DNA of 64,000 bases, from assembly GCA_963798845.1 (NCBI GenBank), contig CAWCUS010000002.1:160001-224000 (forward strand), read 5' to 3'. This DNA comes from an uncultured Gemmatimonadales bacterium (lineage in GTDB: Bacteria > Gemmatimonadota > Gemmatimonadetes > Longimicrobiales > RSA9). Numbering within the stretch: the stretch's first letter is position 1; each line of letters starts with the position of its first letter. A model generated the notes under the pieces. That model ran no database searches. It saw nothing but the letters and a program-made list of their open reading frames with translations, and was not told where the DNA came from. Both the position numbers and the translations under genes were made by a program. Below, piece after piece: positions 3,565 to 42,906 of this stretch.

Positions 3565-4711
3565 ATGAAGGTAGGAGTGCCGCGGGAGGTGGCCCGGGGT
3601 GAGCGTCGGGTTGCCCTGGTCCCGGACACGGTGGCGAAGCTGGTGGGCTCGGGGATGGAAGTGGTGGTGGAGAAGGGGGCGGGGACCGAGGCAGGTTTCG
3701 CCGATTCTGCATACGCCAATGCGGGCGCGACGGTGGCGGATGACGCTGCCGTTTTTGCTGCCGACGTGGTCGTGAAGGTGGCGCCGCCGATGGTGGGCGC
3801 CGGCGCGGACGAGGTGGCGAAGCTGAAGGCCGGGGGCGCGCTGATCGCCTTCCTTCAGCCGCTGGTCTCGCCCGAGCTCGTGAACGGCCTGGCCGCGGCG
3901 AAGGTGACCAGCTTCAGCATGGAGCTGGTGCCGCGGATCACCGTGGCCCAGCGCATGGATGCTCTCTCGAGCCAGGCTACCGCCGCGGGCTACGTCGCCG
4001 CGCTGCGAGGGGCGCTGGATGTCGACGTTTTCTTCCCCATGCTCACCACGGCAGCGGGGACCATCCCGCCGGCCAAGGTGCTGGTGATCGGGGCCGGGGT
4101 AGCGGGGCTGCAGGCGATCGCCACGGCGAAGCGCCTGGGCGCGCGGGTGAAGGGCTTCGATATCCGCCCGGCCGCGGCCGAGCAGGTGGAGAGCCTGGGT
4201 GCCCAGTTCGTGGGCATCACGCTGGAGGAAGCCGAGACCAAGGGCGGCTACGCCAAGGAAGTGACGGCGGACCAGCAGAAGAAGGAGCACGAGCTGCTCC
4301 AGAAGATCTGCGCGGAGAGCGACGTCGTGATCACCACCGCTCAGGTGCCGGGCCGGAAGGCGCCGGTGCTGATCACGCGGGACATGGTGGAGGCCATGCG
4401 TCCGGGGTCGGCGATCGTGGACCTGGCCGCGGAGTCGGGCGGGAACTGCGAGCTGACGAAGGCGGGCGAGACGGTGGTGGAGAACGGCGTGCAGATCATC
4501 GGCCTCGTGGACGCGGCCAGTGTGCTGCCGAAAAACTCCAGCCAGAATGTACTCGAAGAACATCCACGAGCTGCTGAAGCACCTGTATGACGAGGAGGCG
4601 AAGCAGCTGAAGCTGGACTTCGAGGACGAGATCACGCGGGAGTCGTGCGTGACGCACGACGGGACAGTCGTGCACGAACGGACGCGCGCCGCCATCGGCG
4701 CGGGCGCCTGA
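3565..4711 (+). CDS. pntA: NAD(P) transhydrogenase alpha subunit part 1 (dI), with an apparent +1 frameshift near 4546
   Basis: AGGAGG RBS at 3551; GERRVALVP, QRMDALSSQ, GAGVAGLQA, GGYAKE, VDLAAESGGNC. The C-terminus MYSKNI...DFEDEI is in another frame after CAG-A-ATG. Confidence 0.9.
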
Positions 4712-7534: not shown

Positions 7535-7670
7535 GCGGGGGAGTTTGCACCGGTCCGGCGGGCAGAGGGATAGCTCGGCCGGACAAATATTGAATGTGGA
7601 TCCAGGTCCGAGTATGGTCCGAGTATGGCGGGTCCTCCCGAGATCCCTCTGCAGCCGTTACTTTCCCGGC

Positions 7671-8589
7671 GTGCCTGCGACCACGAGAGCGACGACGGGG
7701 AGAAAGGCGACGAAGTCGGCGAGCTTCCGGACCGTGTTCGGCGACCTGGCCGAGCTGACCAAGCCGGGCATCACGCGGCTCGTCGTATTCACCACGGGCG
7801 CGGGCTACCTCATGGCGGCGGGGCGGGAGATGGACTTCCTGCGCCTGTTCAACACCGTTTTCGGGGCCGCGCTGGCGTCGGCGGGGGCGAACGCGCTGAA
7901 CATGTGGTGGGAGCGGGAGACGGACGGGCACATGAAGCGGACGCGGATGCGGCCGCTGCCCGCCGGGCGAGTCTCGCCGCGGACGGCGCTGGGGCTGGCA
8001 CTGGTTCTGTCCGTTCTCGGGCTCGCGCACCTCGCCCTGTTCGTGAACCTGGAGACGCTGCTGCTGGTGGCGACCAGTCTGGTCACGTACATCCTCGTCT
8101 ACACGCCGCTCAAGCGACGGACCCACCACGCCACGCTCATCGGCGCGCTCCCGGGCTCGCTCCCGACGCTGGCCGGGTGGACGGCGGCCGGGCACCCGAT
8201 CACGCTCACCGCGCTGGCGCTCATGGGGGTCGTCTTCTTCTGGCAGAATGCCACACTTCTACGCGCTGGCCTGGGTTTATCGCGACGACTACGCCCGGGG
8301 AGGCATGCGCATGCTGACCTCGGTGGACCCGCGAGGGACGCGGCTCGGGCTCGAGAGCACGCTTTACTCGGCGCTGCTCCTCGTGACGAGCATGGTGCTG
8401 GTGGCCACGGGGCTGATCGACTGGGTCTACGGCGTGGGCGCGCTGGCGCTCGGCACGGTCATGGTCGTCCTGGGCGGGCGGCTCTGGCGGGTGCGGGAGG
8501 ACCGTCGCGCGTGGCATCTGTTCTTCGGCTCCATTCTTTATCTCCCCGCCCTCCTCGTCCTGATGCTGGTCGACCGCTTCTTCCTGTAG
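7671..8589 (+). CDS. ctaB: Protoheme IX farnesyltransferase (heme O synthase), apparent +1 frameshift near 8247
   Basis: ELTKPGI, ANALNM, DGHMKRTRMRPLPAG, YTPLKR. WQ|MPHFYALA is split at CAG-A-ATG; DDYARGG follows. Confidence 0.9.
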
Positions 8590-8699
8590 ACGACGACGCC
8601 CTGCGGCTGCGCGGCGGATTCCCGCCGAGGCCGGCCCGGAGTTGCCTGCCGGGGGGCGGGGATGCTATCCGTTCCCGCCACGAGAGGAGGGGTAGGTCC

Positions 8700-9257
8700 A
8701 TGACGGCGACTGGGACGAGGGAGGGGCTCCGCCACAATGTCGAGCGGCTCTGGCCGGAGCTGGAGTGGATCGAGGATGGGGAGCTGCGGGAGCGGGTGGC
8801 GCGGACCTGGGAGCTGGCGCTGGAGCGGAGCCCGCTGGCGGCCGATGACCTGGAGCGGATCCCGTTCACGCTCCTGGTGAAGGACTGCGGCGCCACGTTC
8901 ATGCAGCACAAGCGCTGCGTGGTGCACATCGCCCGCGATGGCGCCCGCGCAATGCACGCGTTCATGGGCCATGCCCTGGCGATCGACACGGACACGGTGA
9001 TCGCCGGGGCGATCCTGGCCGATGTGGGCAAGCTCCTCGAGTACGAGAAGGAAGGCGACCAGACCCGCCAGAGCGCCCGCGGCCAGGCGCTCCGGCACCC
9101 GTTCACCGGCGTCGCCCTGGCGCTGGAGGCGGGCGTGCCCGACGCGATCTGCCACATCATCGCCGCGCACGCCGGGGAGGGCGACCTGGTGAAGCGGAGC
9201 ACGGAGGCGATCATCGTCCATCACGCAGACTTCATGGCCTACCTTCCGTTCCGGTAG
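8700..9257 (+). CDS. HD-superfamily metal-dependent phosphohydrolase-like protein
   Basis: GAGGAGG RBS; H..CVV, GAILADVGK (HD replaced by AD), RHPFTG, IIAAH, IVHHAD. Confidence 0.75.
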   Translation: MTATGTREGLRHNVERLWPELEWIEDGELRERVARTWELALERSPLAADDLERIPFTLLVKDCGATFMQHKRCVVHIARDGARAMHAFMGHALAIDTDTVIAGAILADVGKLLEYEKEGDQTRQSARGQALRHPFTGVALALEAGVPDAICHIIAAHAGEGDLVKRSTEAIIVHHADFMAYLPFR

Positions 9258-9512
9258 CCCGCCCCCGTCCACCGGGGACCGGCCGCCGGGCCGTTCAAGA
9301 CGCGCGGCCCTGCCTCCGAGCCGGGCGAGTCGGCCGAGCCGAGCCCCCTCTGCGCCCGTAGGGCCGAGCCAATCCTGTAAGGGAATCCCTCCTCCTGTCC
9401 GTCCGCCATCGTCGTCCGTCCCCGCGCGCGATTTCAAGGGATTCCCCACAGCCCCGGGTAGTCCTGTGCGGTAGCTTCGCAGGAGGACCGACTCTGACCC
9501 TCCGGAGGACTC

Positions 9513-10914
9513 ATGGCCACCACCGTCTCTTCCACGCCCGTCGGCACGGTCAGCGCGCGGCTGGCGGACCTGGGCGGCGGATCTCTCGTTCGACGATCTC
9601 GGCCCGGAGGCGATCCACGAGGCCAAGCGCTACCTGCTGGACTCGCTGGGGTGTGCGCTGGGGGGCTTCCGGCAGCACGACGTGAAGATCGCGCTGCAGG
9701 TGCTGGACGAGGTGGCGGGGGAGGGCCGGGCGACGGTGCTGGGGAGCGGCCGGCGGATGGACGTGGTGTCGGCGTCGCTGGCGAACGCGTTGATGATCCG
9801 CGTGATGGACTACAACGACATCTACTGGCAGCAGGACCCGTCGCACCCATCGGACCTGATCCCGGCGGCGCTGGCAATGGCGGAGCGGCAGGGACTGGGC
9901 GGGCGCGACGCGATCCTGGGGATCGTGCTGGGGCACGAGCTGGAGATGCGTTTCTGTGAAGCGGCGTTTCCGGGGATCCGGGAGCGCGGCTGGCACCACG
10001 CCACGCTGACGGCGTTCGTGTCGCCGGTGGTAGCAGGTCGGCTTCTGGGGCTGGACGCGGAGCGGATCCGGCACGCCATCGGGATCAGCGGCTCGAGCCA
10101 CGCCACCGTGGGCGGCGTGGTGGCGGGCAAGCTGTCGATGATGAAGAACACGGCGGACCCGATGGCCACGCAGGCGGGCGTGATGGCCGCGCTGCTGGCG
10201 GAGCGGGGCTACACGGGCCCTGAGGGGGTGGTGGAGGGGAAGGAAGGGCTGGTCCACGTCATGGGCCCGGAATGGAAGCTGGAGGTCCTGACCGAGGGCC
10301 TGGGGGAGAGCTGGCGGATCGAGCGGTGCGGGATGAAGGCGTTCCCGACGGAGGCGCTGACGCACGCGCCGATCTCCGCGGTGCTGGACGTGGTGATGGA
10401 GCACGACCTGAAGCCGGCTGAGATCGAGAAGGTGCGGATCCGGTCGCTGGCCCGGGCGGCGGACATCCTTGCGGACGCGAGCAAGTACGACCCGCGCACG
10501 AAGGAGACGGCGGACCACAGCCTGCCGTACGTGATCGCGGCTGCGATCGTGGACCGTCAGGTGACGCCGCGTCAGTTCGAGGCGGAGCGCATCATGGACC
10601 CTGAAGTCCGGGCCCAGCTGGCGAAGGTGGAAGTGGTGGCGGACGCGGAAATCGAGGCGGTGTTCCCGAAGCTGCAGCGTGTGCACGTGACCGTGCTGAC
10701 GAGGGACGGCCGCGAGCTGACGAAGCAGCTGGACTATCCGAAGGGGGATCCGCGGAACCCGCTCACGGATGCGGAGGTGGAGGCGAAGTTCGCGGCGCTG
10801 GCGGAGCCCGTGATGACGGGGGCGTCGCAGCGTCGGCTGGTGGACGCCGTCTGGTCGCTGGAGCGGCAGGACAGCGTGTCGGCGCTCATGCGGCTCGCGC
10901 GGGCGGACCGCTAG
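9513..10914 (+). CDS. prpD: MmgE/PrpD-family dehydratase, apparent +1 frameshift near 9570
   Basis: GGAGG RBS; removing one C gives ARLADWAADLSFDDL...AKRYLLDSLGCALGG; DYND, SHPSD, GKLSMMK, ETADHSLPY, YPKGDPRNP. Confidence 0.85.
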
Positions 10915-11005
10915 GCCACGTGGGCGGGCCACCCCGGCCCGTCCGGCAATCCCAGTGGACCGCGGTCCCGAGGCGCGCGAGATCGGGCTGCGGGGAGGAG
11001 GATCG

Positions 11006-12955
11006 ATGGGCGCGACAATGGTCGAGAAGATCGCACGGGCCCACATGGTCGACGGGCCCGATCGCCCGCTCCGGCCCGGGGACATGATTTCGCTCCGGCC
11101 GCGGCACATACTGACGCACGACAACACGGCCGCGGTGATGTCGAAGTTCCGCGCAATCGGCGTGGAGCGGATCCATGACCCGCGTCAGCCGGTGATCGTG
11201 CTGGATCACGAGATCCAGAACCGCTCGCCCGAGAACCTGGAAAAGTACACGCGGATCCGTGCCTTCGCCCGTGAGCACGGGCTGGACTTCCATCCGGCGG
11301 GGACGGGGATCGGGCACCAGATCATCGTCGAGCGCGGCTATGCGCTCCCCGGCACGCTGGTGGTGGCGTCCGACTCCCACGCCAACACGTATGGCGCGGT
11401 TGGCGCGCTGGGCACGCCCGTGGTGCGCACGGACGCCGCCGCGATCTGGGCCACGGGGGAGTTCTGGTGGCAGGTGCCGGCGACCGTGCAGGTGGTGCTG
11501 GAAGGGGAGCTGCGACCGGGCGTCAGCGGCAAGGACCTGATCCTCACCCTGTGCTCGCTCTATCCGGCCGGGGAAGTGCTGAACCGGGTCGTGGAGTTCG
11601 CCGGGCCCGGGGTCGCCTCGCTGGACATGGCGGCGCGCATGACGGTGGCGAACATGACCACGGAGTGGGGGGCGCTCGGCGGGTGGTTCCCTGTGGACTC
11701 GCGCACGCTCGAGTTCCTGCGGGAGCGGAAGGCGAGGCTGGAGGCGGCGGACCACCATCGGATCACCGACGCGCAGCTCTTCGCGTGGGGCGCGGCTCCG
11801 CCGCGGCCGGACTCGGACGCCCGCTACGTGGCCCGGATCATCGTGGACCTGGGCAGGGTCAGCCCGTTCCTGGCCGGGCCGGACACGGTGCAGACGGGGC
11901 GGCCGGTGGCGGAGACGGAGGCGGACGGGATCCGCATCGACAAGGCGTACCTCCTTTCCTGCGTGAACGGTCGGCTGGAAGACCTGGAAGCGGCTGCGGA
12001 CGTGGTCCGCGGGCGTCGCGTCGCGCCGCACGTCTCGTTCTTCGTGGCGGCGGCGAGCCGGGAGATCCAGGAGAAGGCCGAGGCGAGCGGGGCGTGGGGC
12101 ACGCTCCTGGACGCGGGCGCCCGGGTGCTCCCGCCCGGCTGCGGCCCGTGCATTGGACTGGGAGAGGGGCTGCTCCAGGACGGGGAGGTCGGGATCTCGG
12201 CCACGAACCGGAACTTCAAGGGACGGATGGGCTCCCGCGACGCCCGCGTGTACCTGGCCAGCCCGGCCGTGGTGGCGGCGTCGGCGCTGGCCGGACGCGT
12301 AAGCAATGGGCGCGTCGCCGGCGGCATCCCGCCGTACGAGTTTCACCGGCTCGACCTGGCCGAGGAGGGCCCGGAGTCGGTGGAGATCATGGCGGGGTTC
12401 CCCGAACGGATCACGGGCCGCCTGGTCTTCGTTCCGCAGGAGAACCTGAACACGGACGGGATCTACGGTAAGGAGCACACGTACCGGGATCGGTCGGTGG
12501 CGGAGATGGCGGCAGCGGTCATGGCGAACTACGATCCGGAATTCGCGAGCCGCACCGCCGCGGGCGACGTCCTGGTGGGGACGCGGAACTTCGGCACGGG
12601 ATCCAGCCGGGAGCAGGCGGCCACCGCTCTCCAGGCGAAGGGGATCGCGCTGGTGATCGCGGAGAGCCTGTCGCAGACGTACCAGCGGAACGCGTTCAAC
12701 AACGGCTTCATCTGCCTGGAGTGCCCGTCGCTGGTGCAGTCGATCGAAAAGGCGCTGGCCGGGGAGATCGCGGAAGGGGAGCCCACGATCGTCACGGGTG
12801 ACGAGCTGAGCGTGGACTTCCGACGGGGGACCATCGAGTGGCGGCGCAAGACGTACCGTTTCCCGGCGCTCGGGCGGGTGCCGCAGAGCCTGGTGGTCGC
12901 GGGGGGCGTCGAGGCGAAGATCCGGGCGACGCTCGGGGGCAACGCAGACCGTTGA
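11006..12955 (+). CDS. Single-chain aconitase-family enzyme (large + swivel domain fused), fungal Lys4/LysF homoaconitase-like
   Basis: THDN, LDHEIQN, GIGHQI, ASDSH, RTDAAAIWATG, ANMTTEWGA, SCVNGR, CGPCIG, TNRNFKGRMG, NTDGIY, NFGTGSSREQA. Recalled similarity to fungal homoaconitase. Confidence 0.8.
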   Translation: MGATMVEKIARAHMVDGPDRPLRPGDMISLRPRHILTHDNTAAVMSKFRAIGVERIHDPRQPVIVLDHEIQNRSPENLEKYTRIRAFAREHGLDFHPAGTGIGHQIIVERGYALPGTLVVASDSHANTYGAVGALGTPVVRTDAAAIWATGEFWWQVPATVQVVLEGELRPGVSGKDLILTLCSLYPAGEVLNRVVEFAGPGVASLDMAARMTVANMTTEWGALGGWFPVDSRTLEFLRERKARLEAADHHRITDAQLFAWGAAPPRPDSDARYVARIIVDLGRVSPFLAGPDTVQTGRPVAETEADGIRIDKAYLLSCVNGRLEDLEAAADVVRGRRVAPHVSFFVAAASREIQEKAEASGAWGTLLDAGARVLPPGCGPCIGLGEGLLQDGEVGISATNRNFKGRMGSRDARVYLASPAVVAASALAGRVSNGRVAGGIPPYEFHRLDLAEEGPESVEIMAGFPERITGRLVFVPQENLNTDGIYGKEHTYRDRSVAEMAAAVMANYDPEFASRTAAGDVLVGTRNFGTGSSREQAATALQAKGIALVIAESLSQTYQRNAFNNGFICLECPSLVQSIEKALAGEIAEGEPTIVTGDELSVDFRRGTIEWRRKTYRFPALGRVPQSLVVAGGVEAKIRATLGGNADR

Positions 12956-12998
12956 CGGGTCCCGGCGAGCGGATCCCGGTCAACGCAAAAGGAGGAGC

Positions 12999-14213
12999 AT
13001 GAAGCACACGGTCGTGACAATGCCTGGGGACGGGATCGGCAAGGTGGTGCTGCCGGAGGCGCTGCGGGTGCTGGACGCGGTGGGTTTCGAGGCGGAGTAC
13101 GTCCACGGCGACATCGGCTGGGACTTCTGGGTCAGCGAGGGGAACGCGCTGCCGGAGCGGACCGTGGCGCTGCTGGCGCAGCACAGGCTGGGGCTGTTCG
13201 GCGCGATCACGTCGAAGCCGAAGACGGAGGCGGCGCGTGAGCTGAAGCGCGAGCTGAAGGACCAGGGCTACGTGTATTTCAGCCCCATCGTAGGACTGCG
13301 GCAGCGCTTCGATCTCGACATCTGCATCCGCCCCTGCCGTTCCTTCCCGGGGAACCCGCTGAACTTCGTCCGGCGTGATCCGGCGGGAGGCGTGGCCGAG
13401 CCGGCGGTGGATTCGGTGATCTTCCGTCAGAACACGGAAGGGCTGTATTCGGGGGTGGAGTGGACGAACCCGCCGAAGGGCGTGCGGGACGCGCTGGCGA
13501 CGCACCCGAAGTTCAAGCCGTTCACCGACACGCCGTCGCACGACCTGGCGATCTCGACGCGGATCTTCACGCGCCGCGCCTGCGCGCGGATCACGCGCGC
13601 CGCCTTCGAGTACGCGGTGAAGCACGGTTACGAGAGCGTGACGGTGTGTGAGAAGCCGAACGTGCTGCGGGAGACCAGCGGGATGATGGAAGAGGAAGCG
13701 AAGAAGGCGCACGAGGACTTCCCCGACATCCAGCTCTGGTCGACGAACATCGACGCGCAGATGATGTGGCTGACGAAGAACCCTGAAGACTACGGGGTCA
13801 TCGTCGCCGGGAACATGTTCGGCGACATCGTGAGCGACGGCTTCGCGGGGCTGGTCGGTGGCCTCGGTTTCGCCTGCTCGGGGAACCTGGGCGACAATGT
13901 GGCCGTCTTCGAGCCGACGCACGGCTCGGCGCCCAAGTACGAGAAGCTGGATCCGCCCATCGTGAACCCGATCGCCATGGTCCTGAGCGCGGCCATGCTC
14001 CTGGACCACGTGGGCGAGCGGGAGAAGGCGGAGCAGGTGCGGGCCGCGGTGGCGGCCGTGGTGCGCGATGGCAGCGTCCGCACCTACGACATGATGCGGA
14101 TCCCCGGCGGGCCCGGCGCGATCGCGCAGGGGGCCGCCAGCACCACTGAGCTGACCGACGCCATCATCGCCGCGCTGTCCGCGCGCGCAGTCGCGAGCGG
14201 GCAGGCGGGATGA
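12999..14213 (+). CDS. Beta-decarboxylating dehydrogenase (isocitrate/isopropylmalate family), homoisocitrate dehydrogenase-like
   Basis: PGDGIG, LFGAITS, SPIVGLRQ, RQNTEGLY, NMFGDIVSD, FEPTHGSAP, NPIAMVLS; AGGAGG RBS. Confidence 0.8.
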   Translation: MKHTVVTMPGDGIGKVVLPEALRVLDAVGFEAEYVHGDIGWDFWVSEGNALPERTVALLAQHRLGLFGAITSKPKTEAARELKRELKDQGYVYFSPIVGLRQRFDLDICIRPCRSFPGNPLNFVRRDPAGGVAEPAVDSVIFRQNTEGLYSGVEWTNPPKGVRDALATHPKFKPFTDTPSHDLAISTRIFTRRACARITRAAFEYAVKHGYESVTVCEKPNVLRETSGMMEEEAKKAHEDFPDIQLWSTNIDAQMMWLTKNPEDYGVIVAGNMFGDIVSDGFAGLVGGLGFACSGNLGDNVAVFEPTHGSAPKYEKLDPPIVNPIAMVLSAAMLLDHVGEREKAEQVRAAVAAVVRDGSVRTYDMMRIPGGPGAIAQGAASTTELTDAIIAALSARAVASGQAG

Positions 14214-15565
14214 GCGGGCCGGAGGCCGGCGTTTCGCCGGGCGCCCGAATGGCCGCCGGAGCGGCGGTGGTGGCGGGTCGGGGAGAGGCGGGGCGAGCCG
14301 GCGATGACGTCCGCTCCGACCTGCACGTCGTCGTGGAAGCGGGCGGCGACGCCGTGACGCTGGACGTGAGGTCGAAGGTGGCGTCGTTGTTCGGCGACGC
14401 GATCCGCGCCACCGTCCTCGAGACCCTCAATGCGTTCGGGGTGAGCGCCGCTCGCGTGGTCGTGGATGACAAGGGCGCCGTGCCCTGGGTGATCGCGGCG
14501 CGCGTGGAAGCCGCGGCCCGCGCCGCCGGCCTGGTGGAGCGGACCGGCGCCGCCGTTCCCTGCGCCGGAGGACGAGGGCCGGCGCTGGGTTTTCCGGCGA
14601 CGAGCCCGACCCCGAGGGACCGGCTCCGCCGGTCCCGCCTCTACGTCCCCGGAAACGAGCCCAAGTTCATGCCGAACGCGGGGCTGCACCGTCCGGACGG
14701 CGTGATCCTGGACCTCGAGGACTCGGTCCACCGGGGCGCGAAGCCGGCGGCCCGCCTGCTGGTCCGGAACGCGCTGCGCTGCGTCGATTTCGGCGCGGCC
14801 GAGCGGATGGTTCGCATCAATCAGCTTCCGCTCGGGCTGGAGGACCTGGAGGCCATCGTCCCGGAGCTCCCCAACCTGGTGCTGGTCCCGAAAGTGGAGG
14901 AGGCTGCGCAGGTGGCGGAGGTGGCCGCGCGGATCGAGGCGATCCGGTCGTCCGCTGGGCTGCCGTCGAAGGAGGCGCACCCGATCTGGCTGATGCCGAT
15001 CCTCGAGTCCGCGCTCGGGATCGAGAACGCGTTCGCGATCGCGCGCGCGTCGGTCACGGTTGCGGCGCTGACCATCGGGCTGGAGGACTACACGGCCGAC
15101 CTGGGCGTTGTGAAGACGAAGGAAGGTGCCGAGACGCTGTGGGCGAGGGCGCGTCTGGTGAACGCGGCCAGGGCGGCGGGCGTCCAGGCCATCGACTCGG
15201 TGTACGGCGACGTGGCGGACGTGGACGGGCTGCTGGCGTGGGCGCGGGCGTCGCACGCCATGGGCTTCGTGGGCATGGGGTGCGTGCACCCCCGCCAGAT
15301 CCGGGTGATCCACGCGGGCTTCGCCCCCACGCCGGAGGAGCTGGAGAAGGCACAGAAGATCGTGGCGGCGTTCCACGACGCGGAGGCGCGGGGCCTGGGC
15401 GTGGTGAGCCTGGGGAGCAAGATGATCGACCCGCCGGTAGTGCTGCGGGCCACGCGGCTGGTGGAGCGGGCGAGGGAGATGGGGGTTCTGGACGCAAGCG
15501 CGGCCGACGCGGGTGCGGTTGCGGCGTCGCCGGCCTCGAACGGGTCGGAGGGGGGTGGCGAGTGA
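14210..15565 (+). CDS. citE: Citrate lyase acyl-carrier (gamma, CitD-like) domain fused to citryl-lyase (beta, CitE) domain
   Basis: N-terminal RSDLHV...FGDAIRATV...DDKGA...ARVEAA (CitD-like); C-terminal RRSRLYVPGN, ILDLEDSV, VRIN, GLEDYTADLG, HPRQI, MIDPPV. Confidence 0.85.
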   Translation: MSGPEAGVSPGARMAAGAAVVAGRGEAGRAGDDVRSDLHVVVEAGGDAVTLDVRSKVASLFGDAIRATVLETLNAFGVSAARVVVDDKGAVPWVIAARVEAAARAAGLVERTGAAVPCAGGRGPALGFPATSPTPRDRLRRSRLYVPGNEPKFMPNAGLHRPDGVILDLEDSVHRGAKPAARLLVRNALRCVDFGAAERMVRINQLPLGLEDLEAIVPELPNLVLVPKVEEAAQVAEVAARIEAIRSSAGLPSKEAHPIWLMPILESALGIENAFAIARASVTVAALTIGLEDYTADLGVVKTKEGAETLWARARLVNAARAAGVQAIDSVYGDVADVDGLLAWARASHAMGFVGMGCVHPRQIRVIHAGFAPTPEELEKAQKIVAAFHDAEARGLGVVSLGSKMIDPPVVLRATRLVERAREMGVLDASAADAGAVAASPASNGSEGGGE

Positions 15566-17175
15566 GCGTGATGACGAAGGTCTCCACGGCGCCGTGGCTG
15601 GACGGGCCGGCGTGGGCGGAGCTGGTGGAGAACGCCGCGGGGCGGCAAGTGCCGCGGGTGGTGAACGGGGAGGCGCAGACGCCGTACGCCGGCGTGGCCG
15701 GCCATGCACCCGACGGCCGGAAGGCCGGTGCGGCCATCCGCTCCGCGCGCGACTATCCGGCGAGCGGCGACAAGCGATCGGGGACCCTGCGCGCGGCGCT
15801 GGAGGCGTGCGGGCTGCGGGATGGGATGACCCTCTCGACGCATCATCATTTCCGGAACGGCGACCGGGTGGCGGTGGCGGCGCTCCAGGCGGCCGCGGAG
15901 CTCGGGGCGAAAGGTCTGCGCTGGTTCCCCAGCGCATCGTTCCCCGCCCATGCGCCGGTGGTGGAGCTGATGGATCGGGGGGTGGTGCACCACATCGAGG
16001 GGAGCATGAACGGCGCCCTCGGCGACTACACGTCGAAGGGAAAGATGGCGGGACTCGGGGTCCTGCGCTCGCACGGCGGCCGGTGGCAGGCGATCCAGGA
16101 CGGCGAGGTGCACGTGGACATCGCGGTGATCGCGGCGCCGACGGCCGACCTGTTCGGCAACGCGGACGGCTCGCATGGCCCTTCCGCCTGCGGCTCGCTC
16201 GGCTTCGCTCTGGCCGACTCCATGTACGCCGACCGCGTGATCGTGGTGACGGACAACGTGGTGCCCTTCCCGTGCATCCCGTGGCAGATCCAGGGGAACA
16301 ACGTGGACCACGTGGTGGTGGTGGACTCGGTCGGGGATCCGTCGAAGATCGTTTCCGGCACCACCGAGATCACCAGGAGTCCCGACCGGCTGCTGATCGC
16401 GGAGTACGTGGCGCGTTTCCTCAAGGATGCGGGGATCATGCGCGACGGCTTCAGCTTCCAGGCCGGCGCCGGAGGGATCGCGCTGGCCTTCGTCGGCTAC
16501 CTGAAGGAAATGATGAAGGAAGCCGGGGTGAAGGCGAGGTTCGTCCGGGGCGGCTCGACGAAGTACCTGGTGGACCTGCTGCGGGAGGGGCTCACCGATT
16601 ACATCCTGGACGGGCAGACCTTCGACCTGGCGGGCGTCGCGTCCATCGGCAGCGACCCGCGCCACGTCGCCACGTCGCCGTTCACGTCCTACAACTACCA
16701 CGGCAAGGGGAACTTCGCCTCCATGGTGGATGCCGTCGTGCTCGGCGCCACGGAAGTGGATTTGGACTTCAACGCGAACGTGGTCACCCATTCCGACGGG
16801 ATGCTCCTGCACGGCATCGGCGGCTGGCAGAACTGCCTGTTCAGCGGGTGCACCATCCTGGCCGTGCCCGCGTTCAGGGACCGGATCCCTGTGCTGGTGG
16901 ACCGGGTCACCACGCTGACCGGGCCCGGCGAGCTGATCGACGTGGTAGTGACGGAGCGAGGGATCGCGATCAACCCGCGACGCGACGACCTGATCCGCGC
17001 CGCCGCTGGCTCCGACCTCCCGATCCGCCCACTGGCCGAGATCAAGGTGGAAGTGGACCGGATGATCGGGGGCGCGCCCTCGCCGGCGCGCGTGACCGAG
17101 CGCCCCGTCGCCATCGTGAAATGGGTGGACGGGACCGTGCTGGACACGGTGTACCAGGTGGCCAGTCCCGCGTAA
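15562..17175 (+). CDS. citF: Citrate lyase alpha subunit-like (ACP/CoA transferase)
   Basis: GLRDGMTLSTHHHFRNGD, LRSHGGR, ACGSLGFA, FSFQAGAGG, LGATEVDLDFNANVVT, DVVVTERGIAINP. Confidence 0.92.
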   Translation: MSVMTKVSTAPWLDGPAWAELVENAAGRQVPRVVNGEAQTPYAGVAGHAPDGRKAGAAIRSARDYPASGDKRSGTLRAALEACGLRDGMTLSTHHHFRNGDRVAVAALQAAAELGAKGLRWFPSASFPAHAPVVELMDRGVVHHIEGSMNGALGDYTSKGKMAGLGVLRSHGGRWQAIQDGEVHVDIAVIAAPTADLFGNADGSHGPSACGSLGFALADSMYADRVIVVTDNVVPFPCIPWQIQGNNVDHVVVVDSVGDPSKIVSGTTEITRSPDRLLIAEYVARFLKDAGIMRDGFSFQAGAGGIALAFVGYLKEMMKEAGVKARFVRGGSTKYLVDLLREGLTDYILDGQTFDLAGVASIGSDPRHVATSPFTSYNYHGKGNFASMVDAVVLGATEVDLDFNANVVTHSDGMLLHGIGGWQNCLFSGCTILAVPAFRDRIPVLVDRVTTLTGPGELIDVVVTERGIAINPRRDDLIRAAAGSDLPIRPLAEIKVEVDRMIGGAPSPARVTERPVAIVKWVDGTVLDTVYQVASPA

Positions 17176-17199
17176 CGGGAAGCGGCCAGAGGAGGAGGC

Positions 17200-17457
17200 A
17201 TGATCAAGATCCACATGGACCCGGGGCGGCTCTCGATCGAGGAGCTGCAGAACATCAGCCGGGCATTGCGCGGCACGTGCATCGACTGCGTGGAGCGGAG
17301 CGTGCCGGAGTGCTGCCGTCACAGCGACGAGGTCCGCCACTTCCTGGGCGCCATGGCGGACGCGGTGGACAGCGTGCGGCTGCGGAGGGAGCAGCGGGAT
17401 ACCGAGCTGGCGCTCGGCGTGGACCCCGACTCGGGGGAGTGGCTGGCGGGAGCCTGA
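17200..17457 (+). CDS. Small hypothetical Cys-containing protein
   Basis: Strong GAGGAGG RBS, typical codon usage, 24 nt after citF; CIDC and CCRH. Confidence 0.65.
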   Translation: MIKIHMDPGRLSIEELQNISRALRGTCIDCVERSVPECCRHSDEVRHFLGAMADAVDSVRLRREQRDTELALGVDPDSGEWLAGA

Positions 17458-17465
17458 GCCGGGAC

Positions 17466-17879
17466 TCAGCCTGCGCGGCGATGCGCGCGGCGCTCGAGCA
17501 CCACCTGGCCGTCCACGACCATGAACCGGATGGCGCGGCTCGCGGCGTCGGGGAAAGCGGCCTGCAGGTGGCGGAAGCGGTCGTTGGAGACCACGCGGGC
17601 GTCCAGCTCGCGGGCGAAGGAGAGGATGAAGTAATCGGCGTCCGTACCCGCGGGGGCCTGCCGGATCCGACCGGCCGCCACGAGGGCCTCGTAGCCGTCG
17701 GGATCATCGATGGTGTGCCGCAGCGTCGCATCGACCAGGACGAGAGGGTCGAGGCCCTCCTCCTCCAGCTTCTGGCATACGGCCCGGATGTTGGCCAGAC
17801 GCGCCCCGCGACCCTCCACGGCGTGCGCGACGTTGGACCCATCGACGAGCACCACTTCCCGGCCTTCCCCTTCGGCCAT
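17466..17879 (-). CDS. NYN/PIN-like (Zc3h12a-type) ribonuclease domain protein
   Basis: VLVDGSNVAH, ADYFIL, VVSNDRFR; GGAG RBS. Confidence 0.8.
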   Translation of the reverse strand: MAEGEGREVVLVDGSNVAHAVEGRGARLANIRAVCQKLEEEGLDPLVLVDATLRHTIDDPDGYEALVAAGRIRQAPAGTDADYFILSFARELDARVVSNDRFRHLQAAFPDAASRAIRFMVVDGQVVLERRAHRRAG

Positions 17880-17918
17880 GAGACTCTCCTCCCGCGCGGC
17901 CGCCGGCTTTCACGGGCG

Positions 17919-17934
17919 TGCAACTGCCGTACCC
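17919..17934 (-). promoter_or_regulatory. Possible sigma54 promoter for the NYN gene
   Basis: Minus strand GGGTACGGCAGTTGCA fits GG-N10-GC, about 40 nt upstream of the start codon. Confidence 0.4.
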
Positions 17935-18094
17935 GTCGCGGGCGCTGGCGGGGCGGTGCTGGCCGCGCCGCTCGCGGTTCGCTAACGTGATGCGTTCCGC
18001 GTCGTCGCGTCGGGCGGCCGCGGCACACCCCGACCGTTGCGCGGCCGGGGTCTTGCACTGCTCTCAACGGGTGCGACCCGCGAGGCATGCGCGC

Positions 18095-18961
18095 ATGAAC
18101 AAGGTCTCCATCCTCAGCTACGCCGCTCTGCTCGCAGTGAAGCACGCGAGCCGCGCGCTGTACCGCATCCATACCGAATGGGTGGGGGACGTCCCGCCGG
18201 ATCCCTGGGATGGAGTGCGCCTGATCGCGGTCGTGCACCACACGAGCCTGGCGGAAGCGATCTACCTGGCCGTGGTGCCGAACCGCATCCTGCGGAAGAT
18301 GTCCCGGCACGCCGTGCTTCCGGTGGCGCGGGAGACGATGGCGCGACCGATCGAAGGGCGCATCTTCCGGCTGCTGGTGCCGAATGCCGTGCCGATCACG
18401 CGGCGTCGCGACCAGAGCTGGGCACGGGTGCTGGACGAGATCGACGATCCCGACTCCATGATGGCGATGTTCCCGGAAGGCCGGATGATGCGGCCCGACG
18501 GCCGGGACAAGAGCGGCGCCCCGATGACCGTCAAGCCGGGGGTCGTGGAAGTGCTCCAGGCGCTCGGCCACGGGCGCATGATCCTGGCCTACAGTGGGGG
18601 GCTGCACCACGTCTTCGCGCCCGGCGCCTCTCTGCCGCGCTTCCTGCAGCCGCTGTCGCTCCGGCTCGAGTCGCTCGACATCGCCGCGTACCTGGAGGAG
18701 CGGGGCCGGGAGCTGCCGTCGCTGACCGACGCAGTGGTCCGGGACCTCACGCGAAGGCGGGACCTGTACACGCCGATCGCGCCCGGGACCCCGCCGGCCG
18801 TGGCGGCGGAAGTCGTTCGGCGTCGACAGCAGGCTTGGCTGCAGCGCTCGCTCGCCGGCGCTGTCAAGCGCCGCCCGAGGGCTTCCGCGGCACGATCATC
18901 GGTCGTCCGGCCAGGCGCTCCACCCCCTCCAGCAGCTCCGCCAGATCGAGCGGCGGGGTGA
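18095..18961 (+). CDS. PlsC-like lysophospholipid acyltransferase
   Basis: HHTSLAE (Hx4D-like block), ITRRRD, MFPEGRM, VKPG. Confidence 0.75.
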   Translation: MNKVSILSYAALLAVKHASRALYRIHTEWVGDVPPDPWDGVRLIAVVHHTSLAEAIYLAVVPNRILRKMSRHAVLPVARETMARPIEGRIFRLLVPNAVPITRRRDQSWARVLDEIDDPDSMMAMFPEGRMMRPDGRDKSGAPMTVKPGVVEVLQALGHGRMILAYSGGLHHVFAPGASLPRFLQPLSLRLESLDIAAYLEERGRELPSLTDAVVRDLTRRRDLYTPIAPGTPPAVAAEVVRRRQQAWLQRSLAGAVKRRPRASAARSSVVRPGAPPPPAAPPDRAAG

Positions 18962-21508: not shown

Positions 21509-23239
21509 ATGGGTCACGATCAGAACGGCGACCGTATGCCGCGCCCCGATCGTTCCGCCGCCCCCTCCGCTCAGCCCCATCCAGACCGCACCGGCTCCGG
21601 AGAGGCCGGGGGCGGGCACCCGCTGCGCCGGATTCTCTGCGTGTTCCCGCAGTACGCCCGCTCGTTCGGCACGCTGCACCACGCGTATCCGCTGCACGGC
21701 CGCGCCCGCGCGTTCATGCCCCCACAGGGGCTGCTGGTCGTGGCCGGCGCGATCCCGGACCATTGGGAAGTGCGCTTCGTGGACGAGAACCTGGGCCGGG
21801 CCAAGGACGAGGACTACGAGTGGGCGGACGCCGTGTTCATCACCGGGATGCACGTGCAGCGCGACCGGATCCGGGAAGTGAACGCCACCGCGCACCGGCA
21901 CGGCCTCGTGACCGCGCTGGGGGGGCCGTCGGTCTCGGCGTGCCCGGAGTGGTACCCGGACGTGGACCTGCTGCACATCGGCGAGCTCGGCGATGGCACG
22001 GACGCGCTCTTCGCCCGGGTCGGCCGGACAGTCGATCGCCCGCGGGACCAGCTCACCTTCGAGACCACGGAGCGGCGGCCGCTGCACGAGTTCCCGCTCC
22101 CCGCGTACGAGCACATCGACGTCCGCGACTACTTCCTGGCGAGCATCCAGTACTCCAGCGGCTGTCCCTTCCGCTGCGAGTTCTGCGACATCCCGGAGCT
22201 GTATGGCCGCGTCCCTCGGCTGAAGACGCCGGAGCAGGTGTGCGCGGAGCTGGACGCGCTCATGGCGTCGGGCCCGCCGGGCGCCGTCTACTTCGTGGAC
22301 GACAACTTCATAGGGAGCCAGAAGGCGGCGCTTCAGCTCCTCCCGCACCTGGTGGAATGGCAGCGGCGGAACGGCTATCCCCTGAGCCTGGCGTGCGAAC
22401 TGTCGATCAACGTCGCCCGCAACGAGCGGATCCTGGAGCTCATGCGCGAGGCGTGGTTCCACACGGTGTTCGTCGGGATCGAGACGCCGGACGAGGACTC
22501 GCTGCGCGGGATCTCGAAGAAGCAGAACCTGGGGATGCCGATCCTGGAGGCGGTGGAGATCCTCAACTCGTACGGGTTCGAGGTGGTGTCGGGGATCATC
22601 ATGGGGCTGGACACGGACACGGAGGAGACGCCCGACCGGATCCTCGAGTTCATCGAGGCGTCCGCCATCCCGATGCTCACGATCAACCTCCTGTACGCGC
22701 TTCCGCGGACACCGCTCTGGCGACGCCTGGAGAAGGAGGGGCGGATCCTCTCGGACGGGGCGGGCGGCGATGAGTCGAACGTGGATTTCAAGCTCCCCCG
22801 CGAAGTGGTGCGGGAGGGCTGGCTGCGGGCGGTGCGCGAAGCGAACGCGCCCGAGGCGCTCTACCGCCGCTTCCAGCACCAGGTGGACCACACCTACCGG
22901 AACCGCTTCGACCCGGGAGAGAACCGGAGGGTGCCCGAGGGATCGCTCCGGAAAGGGCTCGGGATGCTGGCGCGCATCTTCTGGGAGGTCGGCGTGCGCA
23001 GCGATTACCGCCGCACGTTCTGGCGCTTCGCCCTGCCTGCGCTCAGGGAAGGCAGGATCGAGTCGCTGGTGCACGTGCCGATGGTGGCGCACCACCTGAT
23101 CCAGTTCGCCCGTGACTGTGACGCCGGTGTGGGCGAGTACTCCTTCTACTCCCCCGAGGGCACGCCCGGCCGCGCCCCGGCTGGAAAGCGCCGTGGCCAA
23201 CACTCGCTCGTCCACCTCGAGATGGGCCGCAGCGGATGA
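21509..23239 (+). CDS. hpnP: B12-binding radical SAM methylase, hopanoid C-2 methylase (HpnP)-like
   Basis: RRILCVFP..SFGT, AFMPPQGLL, GMHVQ, LGGPSVSACP, HIGELGD, SIQYSSGCPFRCEFCDIP (CxxxCxxC), YFVDDNFIG, EVVSGIIMGLDTD, AHHLIQFAR. Confidence 0.82.
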   Translation: MGHDQNGDRMPRPDRSAAPSAQPHPDRTGSGEAGGGHPLRRILCVFPQYARSFGTLHHAYPLHGRARAFMPPQGLLVVAGAIPDHWEVRFVDENLGRAKDEDYEWADAVFITGMHVQRDRIREVNATAHRHGLVTALGGPSVSACPEWYPDVDLLHIGELGDGTDALFARVGRTVDRPRDQLTFETTERRPLHEFPLPAYEHIDVRDYFLASIQYSSGCPFRCEFCDIPELYGRVPRLKTPEQVCAELDALMASGPPGAVYFVDDNFIGSQKAALQLLPHLVEWQRRNGYPLSLACELSINVARNERILELMREAWFHTVFVGIETPDEDSLRGISKKQNLGMPILEAVEILNSYGFEVVSGIIMGLDTDTEETPDRILEFIEASAIPMLTINLLYALPRTPLWRRLEKEGRILSDGAGGDESNVDFKLPREVVREGWLRAVREANAPEALYRRFQHQVDHTYRNRFDPGENRRVPEGSLRKGLGMLARIFWEVGVRSDYRRTFWRFALPALREGRIESLVHVPMVAHHLIQFARDCDAGVGEYSFYSPEGTPGRAPAGKRRGQHSLVHLEMGRSG

Positions 23240-24255
23240 GGAAGCCGACCGTGAAGGTCTGGGGCACCGTCCTGCTCCTGGTCGGGCTCGGCCTCACCAT
23301 ATTCTTCGTGGTCACGACGGGGCCCGCCCGCATCTGGGGAATGCTCCGGGAGGCAGGCTGGTGGGTGCTCGCCGTGGCGTTCGCCCACTTCGCCTACATC
23401 GCGATCCTCGCCATGGCATGGCGGACGCTGCTCCACGCCAATGGGGCCAGGGCCCCGTTCCGCGACATCTTCTACTACCGCTGGGTGGCCGACGGATCGC
23501 AGGCGCTCCTCCCGGGCCCCGAGGTCACCGGGGACGTCATGCGCGGCTACCTCCTGGCACGTCGGCGGCCGGAGGTCCAGGGACCCGTCTCGGCGGCGGT
23601 GATCATCGTGGAGCTCACGCTCCGGATGGTCTCGCTGATCCTGTTCATCGGGACCGGGCTCATCCTGCTGGCCATACGGGGCCAGGGCATGGTCAACACG
23701 CTGGTGGCGGGCGGGATCCTCGTCGCCATGCTGGCGTCCCTGGTCTACGTCCAGCGCGCGAGCCTCCTGCGCAAGCTGGCCACCAAGATGGAGCGCCGCG
23801 CGCAGCAGGAGCGCTGGCTCCGGTTCGCCGGAAGCATGAGCGGGGTGGACGCGGAGATCGGGACCATCTACGGAGAGACCGGCGCCCTCGCCCGCACCGC
23901 CGGCTGGCACTTCCTCGGCTTCTTCTTCGCCGCGGCCGAGATCTGGATGCTCCTCTACGCCGTCCACCACTACGTCGGCGCGCCGGACGTGGTGGTGTTC
24001 GAGAGCATCGGCCGCGCGGCCTCCAACGCCGGGTTCTTCATGCCCGCCGGCCTGGGGGCGCAGGAGGGCGGCTACCTGCTGGGCGCCCGCTTCGTCGGTC
24101 TGGCCGCCGCCGTGGGCGTGGCCATCTCGCTGCTGAAGCGGCTGCGCGACGTGCTGGTCGGGCTGCCGGCGCTGGGGCTGCTCTGGTTCCGGGAGATTCG
24201 CTCGCCCGCCGACCGGGAGGAGCTCCGCGAGGTCACCGCGCCACCGATCCCCTGA
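23236..24255 (+). CDS. hpnL: HpnL-like (lysylphosphatidylglycerol synthase TM / flippase-like) membrane protein
   Basis: ATGA overlap with hpnP; multi-TM; ESIGRA..AGFFMPAGLGAQEGGY, SLLKRLRDVLVGLP. Confidence 0.7.
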   Translation: MRKPTVKVWGTVLLLVGLGLTIFFVVTTGPARIWGMLREAGWWVLAVAFAHFAYIAILAMAWRTLLHANGARAPFRDIFYYRWVADGSQALLPGPEVTGDVMRGYLLARRRPEVQGPVSAAVIIVELTLRMVSLILFIGTGLILLAIRGQGMVNTLVAGGILVAMLASLVYVQRASLLRKLATKMERRAQQERWLRFAGSMSGVDAEIGTIYGETGALARTAGWHFLGFFFAAAEIWMLLYAVHHYVGAPDVVVFESIGRAASNAGFFMPAGLGAQEGGYLLGARFVGLAAAVGVAISLLKRLRDVLVGLPALGLLWFREIRSPADREELREVTAPPIP

Positions 24256-42500: not shown

Positions 42501-42906
42501 CGGGATCCTCGGACCCAAGGTGCTGCTCATCAACGAGCTCGCCGGGTCCGGCGGCGATTACTTCCCCTGGGCCTTCCGCCAGCTCGACGTGGGGCCGCTC
42601 ATCGGCCAGCGCACCTGGGGAGGGCTGGTGGCCGCCTGCGCCCCCTACGCCCTCGTGGACGGCGGCTACATCACCTCCCCGTGCAGCGCCGTCTTCTCCG
42701 GCGACCACTGGGTGGCGGAGAACGAGGGCGTGCCGCCCGACATCCCCGTCTACTTCGACGCGAAGGACTACGCGGCTGGCCGCGACCCGCAGCTCGAGCG
42801 CGCCGTCCGGGAAGCGCTGAAGCTGCTCGAGACCGAAGGCGTGAACGCGCAGCGGCACCCGCCCTTCGTGAAGAAGGCCAGGCGGCCGGAGACGGGCGGG
42901 CAGTAG
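39537..42906 (+). CDS. Tricorn-like S41 protease (PD40 propellers, PDZ, S41), apparent +1 frameshift near 41616
   Basis: Signal peptide, FSPDG repeats, YRGG; then EEWRQIFEEAWR, GELSVGH, IDERFNGGG, GSGGD, RTWGGL, ENEGVPPD, DPQLERA. Confidence 0.92.

Follow-up and report, generated by a model that had tools for sequence, protein, structure and literature searches.

A conserved bacterial operon joining a Lys4-type aconitase to a citrate-lyase-like complex: a probable, hitherto undescribed route connecting a 2-oxo acid with acetate

Introduction

In the first half of the fungal alpha-aminoadipate pathway (Lys20/21, Aco2 with Lys4, and Lys12) a fused homoaconitase of the Lys4 type performs one dehydration half-reaction and leaves the other to a separate enzyme. 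To our knowledge, dehydration half-reactions are split in this way only where one aconitase-family enzyme cannot do both, and the cases are reportedly those of homocitrate, in fungi and in Thermus, and of 2-methylcitrate. In work on Thermus and fungi, the enzyme that dehydrates homocitrate where homoaconitase cannot is not known to have been settled. The operon described here is abundant and strongly conserved, and bears on this open step of homocitrate metabolism. It lies in a stretch of 64,000 nucleotides (nt) from an uncultured Gemmatimonadales bacterium (assembly GCA_963798845.1, contig CAWCUS010000002.1, positions 160,001-224,000), which as a whole is called the window below, and runs from an HD-domain protein through a PrpD-like protein, a Lys4-type aconitase and a beta-decarboxylating dehydrogenase to a citrate-lyase-like complex. 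It probably encodes a route, not described before, that links a 2-oxo acid with acetate, and it resembles the alpha-aminoadipate half, citrate lyase and the cleavage end of the reductive tricarboxylic acid (TCA) cycle, being a full member of none.

With the alpha-aminoadipate half the operon shares the Lys4-type fused homoaconitase, a separate enzyme that would serve the other dehydration half-reaction and a beta-decarboxylating dehydrogenase encoded next to it. Unlike that pathway, it has a citrate-lyase-type complex where the homocitrate synthase would be, its putative partner dehydratase comes from the PrpD family and not from the aconitases, its dehydrogenase bears an NADP signature and passes no homoisocitrate dehydrogenase model, the later lysine genes are not linked to it, and its direction is probably reversed. 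Citrate lyase CitDEF, known from enterobacteria (citCDEFXG in E. coli) and from lactic acid bacteria, and the related citramalate lyase of Clostridium have the same three functions, and the conserved Ser in the carrier domain of the operon may correspond to theirs, but in the operon the carrier is fused to CitE, CitE and CitF score under the model cut-offs, neither citC, citX and citG nor a citrate transporter or oxaloacetate decarboxylase is linked, and the complex is set among aconitase- and dehydrogenase-like genes. Citrate cleavage in the reductive TCA cycle of Hydrogenobacter, Aquifex and Chlorobium follows the same logic of reductive carboxylation, isomerisation and cleavage of a citrate-form acid, and a planctomycete variant of the operon even shares the subunits resembling succinyl-coenzyme A (CoA) ligase and the citryl-CoA lyase of those systems. 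Unlike them, the operon is proposed to yield free acetate via an acyl carrier and not acetyl-CoA, its aconitase and dehydrogenase are not TCA enzymes, and its hosts belong to heterotrophic phyla, with no other marker of the reductive TCA cycle seen nearby.

The 2-methylcitrate cycle (PrpC, PrpD, AcnB or AcnD-PrpF, PrpB) likewise pairs a PrpD-family protein with an aconitase-family hydratase, whereas the PrpD-like protein of the operon is 24.5% identical to E. coli PrpD, PrpC and PrpB are missing, and a dehydrogenase gene follows. Since 2-methylisocitrate is a tertiary alcohol, which a dehydrogenase cannot oxidise, and since no PrpB or PrpC accompanies the operon, this cycle was rejected as its function. 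Methanogen 2-oxo-acid elongation (AksA, AksD/E, AksF) and the phosphonate pathway (FrbC, FrbA, FrbB), the latter compared on the basis of PMC8942020, use the same triad of condensation or cleavage, isomerisation and oxidative decarboxylation, and AksF2 is the best-scoring named model for the operon dehydrogenase (261 bits); these pathways, unlike the operon, employ LeuA-type synthases and split HacA/HacB isomerases. Phosphonate chemistry of the FrbC/FrbA/FrbB kind, with the HD protein as a PhnZ-type enzyme, was also set aside: Pfam scans of the neighbours in 24 of the 80 related loci introduced below found no phosphoenolpyruvate mutase or FrbC-type synthase, and E. coli LeuA found no match in the window or in all 80.

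In those parts of the literature outside subscription journals that were accessible, no account was found of the operon as one pathway, of a homocitrate lyase or of reductive 2-oxoadipate catabolism. Public annotation names the genes 'homoaconitase', 'citrate lyase subunit alpha' and 'PrpD', and thus spreads them over three unrelated pathways. They are probably misinterpreted when the metabolism of Gemmatimonadota, Acidobacteriota and neighbouring phyla is reconstructed.

A proposed route between 2-oxoadipate and acetate

From the families to which the proteins belong, we propose that the operon handles a tricarboxylic hydroxy-acid of the citrate or homocitrate series and ties it to an acyl-carrier-dependent carbon-carbon lyase. 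The NADP-type dehydrogenase would interconvert a 2-oxo-dicarboxylate plus CO2 and an 'iso' hydroxy-tricarboxylate, and the Lys4-type iron-sulfur hydro-lyase would interconvert this iso-acid and the cis-unsaturated acid. The PrpD-family enzyme would then carry out the second hydration or dehydration, which lies beyond the reach of Lys4-type enzymes, and the CitD::CitE fusion together with CitF would cleave the citrate-form acid, releasing acetate and leaving a 2-oxo acid with two carbons fewer than the tricarboxylate has. We infer each reaction, substrate and direction from family membership, the gene content, order, conservation and family placement being observed.

In its seven-carbon form the route would run 2-oxoadipate + CO2 + NADPH → homoisocitrate → cis-homoaconitate → homocitrate → 2-oxoglutarate + acetate. 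Such a route would reverse the first half of the alpha-aminoadipate pathway and put a 'homocitrate lyase' where that pathway has its synthase, and 2-oxoadipate, for example from lysine breakdown, would enter central metabolism without CoA or a 2-oxo-acid dehydrogenase. We put this form forward tentatively, as the most likely of the readings considered but as possible rather than probable. The seven-carbon substrates are favoured because of the Lys4-type placement of the aconitase, the need for a second dehydratase and the Ile and Val substitutions in the dehydrogenase, and cleavage is favoured because a lyase is repeatedly paired with the module, synthases are lacking, the dehydrogenase has an NADP signature and the end products are central metabolites. 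The GSAPKY signature fits an NADPH-driven reductive carboxylation, and products that belong to central metabolism fit an operon that needs no further neighbours. The wider claim, that several abundant soil and sediment phyla possess this reversed half-pathway with a PrpD-family 'homocitrate dehydratase', a Lys4-type hydratase and a new homocitrate lyase, independent of CoA, ATP and a 2-oxo-acid dehydrogenase, is conceivable but doubtful. The operon adds to the TCA branch and does not constitute it.

Were the seven-carbon reading true, it would provide a new catabolic link from lysine or aminoadipate breakdown to the TCA cycle, the lyase would be the first known to act on homocitrate, and this branch of the MmgE/PrpD family would gain its first assigned function. 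It would likewise supply the long-sought type of enzyme for the bacterial step from homocitrate to cis-homoaconitate and mark the bacterial kin of fungal Lys4.

A six-gene unit conserved across phyla

Seven open reading frames (ORFs) on the + strand lie within positions 8700-17457 of the window, whose G+C content is about 71%, and their third-position G+C (GC3) is high, as in real genes. The nearest relatives of the window's proteins come from metagenome bins of Gemmatimonadota/Longimicrobiales. The unit begins with the gene for an HD/HDIG-domain protein of 185 residues (8700-9257) and continues with that for the MmgE/PrpD-family protein (9513-10914, read in two frames), the fused aconitase of 649 residues (11006-12955), the dehydrogenase of the Iso_dh family with 404 residues (12999-14213), the CitD::CitE fusion (14210-15565) and a CitF-like alpha subunit, a predicted acyl-ACP:carboxylate transferase, where ACP stands for acyl carrier protein (15562 from a GTG, or 15571 from an ATG, to 17175). 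A small Cys-rich ORF of 85 residues (17200-17457; GC3 0.94) follows, the membership of which in the unit is uncertain. The preliminary description had spoken of a co-directional run with overlapping ends from the dehydrogenase to citF, and every gene that it listed was indeed found on the + strand. An ATGA at 14210-14213 joins the dehydrogenase gene and citDE, and a GTGA at 15562-15565 joins citDE and citF with an overlap of 4 nt, which turns into a gap of 5 nt if the ATG at 15571 is used. A promoter and terminator scan of 8300-18100 gave no sigma-70 promoters and one terminator-like site against 2.2 expected, a kind of scan that is uninformative for this phylum.

The conservation of this arrangement was followed by scanning one genome per species with the window aconitase and keeping the best 80 of at least 559 relatives, on which the window proteins were placed by tblastn, a gene being counted as present at ≥55% identity. 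Fifty-three of these loci have room for the whole unit, their DNA reaching 2400 nt or more beyond the aconitase gene on its upstream side and 4600 nt or more on its downstream side. All six genes from HD to CitF occur in 32 of the 80 loci and in 29 of the 53 with room, and gene order, proposed earlier as a check, is that of the window in each of the 29. Among the other loci with room, three lack the PrpD-like gene only, one lacks the HD gene only and 10 hold the PrpD-like and aconitase genes as a pair on their own, the others being partial or planctomycete forms. The PrpD-like gene adjoins the aconitase gene in 51 of the 66 loci that have upstream room. The full form occurs, with taxa as labelled, in Gemmatimonadota, several classes of Acidobacteriota, Latescibacterota, Rhodothermales, Eisenbacteria and one Actinomycetota bin, and in full loci the identities across phyla are 76-86% for CitF, 69-83% for the dehydrogenase, 70-80% for the PrpD-like protein and 66-82% for the HD protein. 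Such an arrangement is far beyond chance. The family is large, as the number of aconitase relatives already indicates, and the protein collection contains 7986 relatives of CitF at E ≤ 1e-100.

The genes bordering the operon vary among the 24 loci whose neighbours were scanned with Pfam and, since the flanks differ from locus to locus, the six genes constitute a self-contained unit, of which the HD protein is a conserved part. In these 24 loci the flanks contained no recurrent transporters, regulators or lysine genes. The loci L007 (9315-11980), L016 and L034 are otherwise complete operons without the PrpD-like gene, in which HD is followed directly by the aconitase, and L004 is an operon without the HD gene; the unit therefore tolerates the loss or relocation of single members. 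The small ORF, which the preliminary description had counted into the run, is present in the window and is conserved in L001, L004 and L007 (53-74% identity), but not beyond; it matches no Pfam or NCBIfam model.

The aconitase is of the Lys4 type

The placement of the aconitase carries much of the argument. Its Pfam domains span residues 24-447 (Aconitase) and 475-591 (Aconitase_C) of a 666-residue ORF, and it reaches 666.2 bits, against a cut-off of 529.9, on TIGR00139, the NCBI equivalog for fungal homoaconitase, which is built from fungal Lys4. This is its best score on any model (PRK00402 393, IPMI_arch 373, PRK07229 370 bits), and it fails both models of fused aconitate hydratase (370 against 612 for PRK07229, 290 against 719 for the other). 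It is 50% identical to P0127, a representative of 797 residues which matches TIGR00139 from end to end (1357 bits) and has an N-terminal extension of about 80 residues; the N-terminal extensions and model scores of P0127 and of P0141 suggest that both are fungal.

In a FastTree phylogeny of 59 rows and 654 columns, using 45 of 150 cluster representatives drawn from 1.8 billion proteins, the window protein and all variants from the loci stand in a clade of 27 rows (support 97) together with every one of the 11 representatives that score above the TIGR00139 cut-off, P0127 among them. Branches with support of 99-100 split this Lys4-like clade from the LeuC, HacA and PRK07229 rows. We regard the Lys4-type placement, inferred from models and tree, as firm, and the earlier assignment to fungal Lys4 rather than bacterial LeuCD thus stands; the motifs on which it was based (THDN, LDH..QN, RTDAA.IWATG, ANMTTEWGAL and NTDGIY) are all found in the translation. 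SCVNG and GCGPCIG, presumably holding the cluster-binding Cys residues, and GSSRE, presumably with the catalytic Ser and Arg known from mitochondrial aconitase, are present as well.

The swivel loop, NTDGIYGKEHTYRDR, contains an Arg at the aligned position of the specificity Arg in the small subunit of archaeal homoaconitase, which argues for a third carboxylate on the substrate and against citramalate or isopropylmalate. Together with the Lys4-type placement, this Arg disfavours the citramalate and isopropylmalate series without strictly excluding it.

The tree does not follow taxonomy: the window groups with L003, an Actinomycetota bin, and L010 (Latescibacterota) with L019 (Rhodothermales). 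The discordance, and the 60-86% identity of the operon proteins across phyla, suggest lateral transfer of the whole unit, or else mis-binned contigs. A second clade of Lys4-type aconitases, at about 58% identity (L055, L060-L064, L066, L068, L069 and L052, with the aconitase at about 10001-11940), keeps the PrpD-like partner only, without a dehydrogenase or lyase within 10 kb.

The PrpD-like and HD proteins

The protein encoded upstream of the aconitase matches Pfam MmgE_PrpD_N (190.6 bits) and MmgE_PrpD_C (157.2 bits) and falls below all NCBIfam equivalogs for PrpD (105.4 against 950, 69.5 against 575 and 51.3 against 458 bits). Among solved structures it is nearest to IDS-epimerase (125 bits) and to IRG1 of B. 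subtilis, a cis-aconitate decarboxylase (97 bits), with PrpD itself at 45-49 bits. The label "PrpD" of the preliminary description must accordingly be withdrawn in favour of a distant member of the MmgE/PrpD family, which may, in the route proposed, act as homocitrate dehydratase.

The HD protein has no step in that route. It just passes the NCBIfam model HDIG (28.9 bits against a cut-off of 27.6), and in the full loci its orthologues precede the rest of the operon. Where the canonical HD doublet is expected, the motif reads AD (LADVGK), with Ala for His in the window and in 44 of 44 aligned orthologues, while the other His and Asp residues are invariant, so that its metal site, as judged from the alignment, is unusual. 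Across 29 sequences, among them planctomycete proteins with 38-42% identity, 47 positions do not vary. A search of solved structures by sequence gave a single match, at E = 0.18, and the Atlas gave generic HD clusters only. Its AlphaFold model (predicted local distance difference test, pLDDT, 90.2) has YhaM as its best solved fold match (template-modelling, TM, scores 0.58/0.52), and among the weak matches is yeast Ddi2 cyanamide hydratase, a hydratase of the HD fold (TM 0.44); solved HD-fold proteins thus resemble it loosely, and none is a close structural relative.

These two proteins provide grounds for supposing that the substrate is another polycarboxylate, neither citrate nor homocitrate, such as a longer homologue, a lactone or some unfamiliar plant or microbial acid. 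In that case the PrpD-like protein would be an epimerase, an isomerase or a decarboxylase, and the HD protein would act as a hydratase or hydrolase that depends on a metal. The affinities of the PrpD-like protein would suit this, as would an HD protein as conserved as the enzymes, with its altered metal motif and its weak likeness to Ddi2, yet in the simplest scheme four of the five enzyme types already have their textbook places. The dehydrogenase, CitE and CitF all lie under every equivalog cut-off, and the planctomycete version encloses two conserved ORFs of no known family, whereas the Lys4-type placement is firm, 2-methylcitrate is excluded by the inability of a dehydrogenase to oxidise 2-methylisocitrate, and nothing points to a particular alternative substrate. 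We consider such a substrate unlikely.

The dehydrogenase between isocitrate and homoisocitrate

The dehydrogenase belongs to Pfam Iso_dh (251 bits) and falls below the cut-off of all 16 NCBIfam models listed among its matches. AksF2 homoisocitrate dehydrogenase scores highest (261.2 against 540 bits); AksF gives 245.8 against 500, prok_nadp_idh 167.8 against 567.3 and the model for isocitrate-homoisocitrate dehydrogenase 125.6 against 680. Among solved structures, its best match is the homoisocitrate dehydrogenase of T. thermophilus (190 bits); that of S. pombe (3ty3) lies below the Thermus enzyme at 140 bits. The SPIV.LR motif quoted for this protein in the preliminary description is present in the translation, and the Lys12-like character then ascribed to it is a possibility. 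Locally, the loop segment with SPIVxLR aligns best with E. coli isocitrate dehydrogenase, and the S. pombe enzyme is not among the 17 matches to it.

In the alignment with E. coli Icd and LeuB, every catalytic residue has its counterpart. At the position of Asn115 of E. coli Icd, which presumably binds the distal carboxylate of isocitrate, the operon enzyme carries Ile, and at that of Arg85 of the Thermus enzyme it carries Val; a Thermus R85V mutant reportedly loses activity on isocitrate and keeps that on homoisocitrate. GSAPKY, like FSPIV, occurs in at least 90% of 53 orthologues and places Lys-Tyr, a mark of NADP use, where the NAD-dependent LeuB and Thermus homoisocitrate dehydrogenase carry Asp-Ile. 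The equivalents of Lys344 and Tyr345 of E. coli Icd are thus kept.

The citrate-lyase-like complex and the case for citrate

All three functions of a citrate lyase are present and adjacent. One ORF combines an ACP domain (PF06857, 64.8 bits; about 14309-14524) with a CitE-like beta subunit of the HpcH_HpaI family (167.6 bits; about 14630-15490), and the next encodes CitF (Pfam CitF 424.4 bits; solved relatives 2hj0 at 382 and 1xr4 at 343 bits). Identity to the E. coli subunits is 37-40% (CitE 37%, CitF 39%), and the subunits remain under the NCBIfam cut-offs (citE 262.8 against 443.4, citD 62.0 against 63.5, citF TIGR01584 465.9 against 501.45). The fusion of carrier and CitE is kept in at least 90% of 41 sequences, as is the Ser of an RSD motif, putatively the equivalent of the CitD Ser to which the prosthetic group is attached.

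In Planctomycetota (L079, L076; partly L009 and L006) the HD protein, aconitase, dehydrogenase and PrpD-like protein recur at about 40-56% identity, and CitDEF is replaced by beta and alpha subunits resembling succinyl-CoA ligase and by a citryl-CoA lyase (NF004869, 260.7 bits against a cut-off of 212). As CitDEF accompanies the module in one form and a citryl-CoA synthetase-like enzyme with its lyase in the other, a carbon-carbon lyase goes with it in two unrelated molecular forms. The planctomycete form spans 3414-9989 of L079 and 3829-9993 of L076 and also contains a GNAT protein and, between HD and aconitase, two conserved ORFs of about 340-430 and 190 residues. At E ≤ 0.5 neither these two nor the small ORF found a Pfam family, apart from two matches at chance level.

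The lyase is among the grounds for a version of the route on citrate, in which 2-oxoglutarate, CO2 and NADPH would yield isocitrate, cis-aconitate and citrate, and citrate would be cleaved to oxaloacetate and acetate, or in the planctomycete form to acetyl-CoA. The module would then serve as a reductive half-cycle for the use of glutamate or 2-oxoglutarate, or as a spare two-enzyme aconitase branch, and would be an unrecognised combination of two-enzyme aconitase, NADP-dehydrogenase and citrate lyase in phyla whose carbon metabolism is deduced almost entirely from annotation. The family names are all those of citrate enzymes, the subunits keep the identity to E. coli citrate lyase just given and the planctomycete partner passes a citryl-CoA lyase model, whereas the aconitase fails both aconitate hydratase models and passes that for homoaconitase. 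Of the features of E. coli Icd, the dehydrogenase retains the clasp-like insert and the counterparts of Ser113, Lys344 and Tyr345, but not that of Asn115, the Ile at this place being part of the FSPIV motif kept in at least 90% of 53 sequences. E. coli PrpD reportedly dehydrates citrate, and the 10 lone pairs of PrpD-like and aconitase genes would suit a housekeeping isomerase; an ordinary aconitase, on the other hand, needs no PrpD partner. Finally, a true citrate synthase gene abuts the operon in two loci, L054 and L056, though citrate synthase beside citrate lyase would make a futile cycle. We rate the citrate version as rather unlikely, while treating it as a serious rival to the homocitrate route.

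Partner genes, direction and the points against homocitrate

The preliminary description had found no citrate, homocitrate or methylcitrate synthase, PrpB or other lysine genes in the window, and the Pfam scans, which covered selected ORFs including the high-GC3 frames of intergenic gaps, agree in finding none. The LeuA query for a homocitrate-synthase-type gene remained without a match in the window and the 80 loci, as already said, and so did E. coli PrpB; E. coli PrpC matched only the citrate synthases of L054 and L056 and the citryl-CoA lyases of L006, L076 and L079. The neighbours scanned in the window and 24 loci contained no member of the HMGL-like Pfam family. In L004 a diaminopimelate epimerase gene adjoins the operon, so that lysine is there probably made by the diaminopimelate route.

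These findings bear on the direction of the route. In principle, the lyase could work in reverse as an ATP- and CoA-independent (homo)citrate synthase, condensing acetyl-S-ACP with 2-oxoglutarate after acetate has been exchanged in by CitF, with a pull towards 2-oxoadipate for aminoadipate or a further product. Each step is chemically reversible, and by our own rough estimate the free energy is negative at millimolar acetate and 2-oxoglutarate when the oxidative decarboxylation is included, but homocitrate would be at about micromolar concentration at equilibrium. The ATP-citrate lyase of Desulfobacter is said to be used as a synthase, which offers a precedent; homocitrate synthases are widespread, however, and yet replace the lyase in none of the 80 loci. 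The gene order of HD, PrpD-like protein, aconitase and dehydrogenase favours neither direction, whereas an NADP-type signature would be out of the ordinary in a homoisocitrate dehydrogenase that works oxidatively in biosynthesis. In the 24 loci scanned, neither an aminotransferase nor any other gene for the use of 2-oxoadipate recurs next to the operon, and the neighbour in L004 speaks for lysine made by another route. We judge a biosynthetic operon distinctly improbable.

Several points, in turn, weigh against the route from 2-oxoadipate by way of homocitrate to acetate. Thermodynamics, roughly estimated, allow either direction, and no lysine-catabolic gene is linked to the operon in any of the loci examined. 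A type I citrate synthase (639 bits against 505) is encoded directly upstream of the HD gene in two Acidobacteriota/Thermoanaerobaculia-like loci (L054:1470-2792 and L056:1-711), which, like the name of the planctomycete citryl-CoA lyase, points towards citrate. The dehydrogenase reaches no cut-off for homoisocitrate dehydrogenase and keeps the Ser113 equivalent and the clasp-like insert of isocitrate dehydrogenase, and for CitE and CitF there is no residue-level rule that separates homocitrate from citrate. Canonical citrate lyases need citC, citX and citG for their prosthetic group and activation. The corresponding E. coli proteins, distant as queries, gave no tblastn match at E ≤ 0.01 in the window and 80 loci, in a run that returned 47, 41 and 40 high-scoring pairs for CitE, CitF and CitD, and the window ORF scans found no Pfam family of the three, a lack that the preliminary description had overlooked. 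By its scores, the PrpD-like protein resembles an epimerase and a decarboxylase more than it does any dehydratase known, and its gene is absent from the operon in three loci (L007, L016 and L034). Lastly, a strongly conserved HD protein that has no step in the scheme may mean that the scheme is incomplete.

Reading frames in the window

The PrpD-like gene of the window starts with the ATG at 9513, runs for some twenty codons, changes frame near 9571-9580 and ends at 10914, and the N-termini of its orthologues are continuous across the point of the shift. It could be supposed that the operon is decaying in this genome, with a broken PrpD-like gene and no function, and the syntenic relative L007 does lack the gene at the same place. 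Every other gene of the operon is intact, however, with GC3 values of 0.84-0.94, and the housekeeping genes pntA and ctaB, a few kb upstream, carry the same kind of single frame change. Against the orthologues in L007, pntA (3565-4687) is seen to shift near 4545 and ctaB/UbiA (about 7662-8589) near 8247, and a tricorn-protease-like gene (39537-42903) is likewise interrupted. Because these genes are broken in the same way, the frame change is probably an assembly error of the indel-prone long-read type rather than the sign of a pseudogene, and the operon is therefore treated as intact; decay we judge very improbable.

Genes around the operon

In several distantly related lineages, genes for haem A synthesis and cytochrome oxidase (ctaB/UbiA, CtaA/COX15, COX1/COX2) closely precede the operon or the PrpD-aconitase pair: at 7662-8589 in the window, at 7894-8847 in L007, in L029, at about 5300-7500 in L055, L060, L062 and L063, and at 4535-6651 in L025. 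This could reflect old synteny or a link to aerobic growth. Downstream of the operon the window contains, on the - strand, an ORF with an NYN/Zc3h12a-like ribonuclease domain (17466-17879), followed by a weakly acyltransferase-like ORF (17918-18961) that is syntenic with L007. Further on, the region 21509-24255 encodes a B12-binding radical SAM protein, which matches known models weakly, those of P-methyltransferase and hopanoid methylase giving the best scores. An HpnL-like membrane protein that passes its model (198 bits against a cut-off of 196) comes next, and the two may form a lipid-modification pair.

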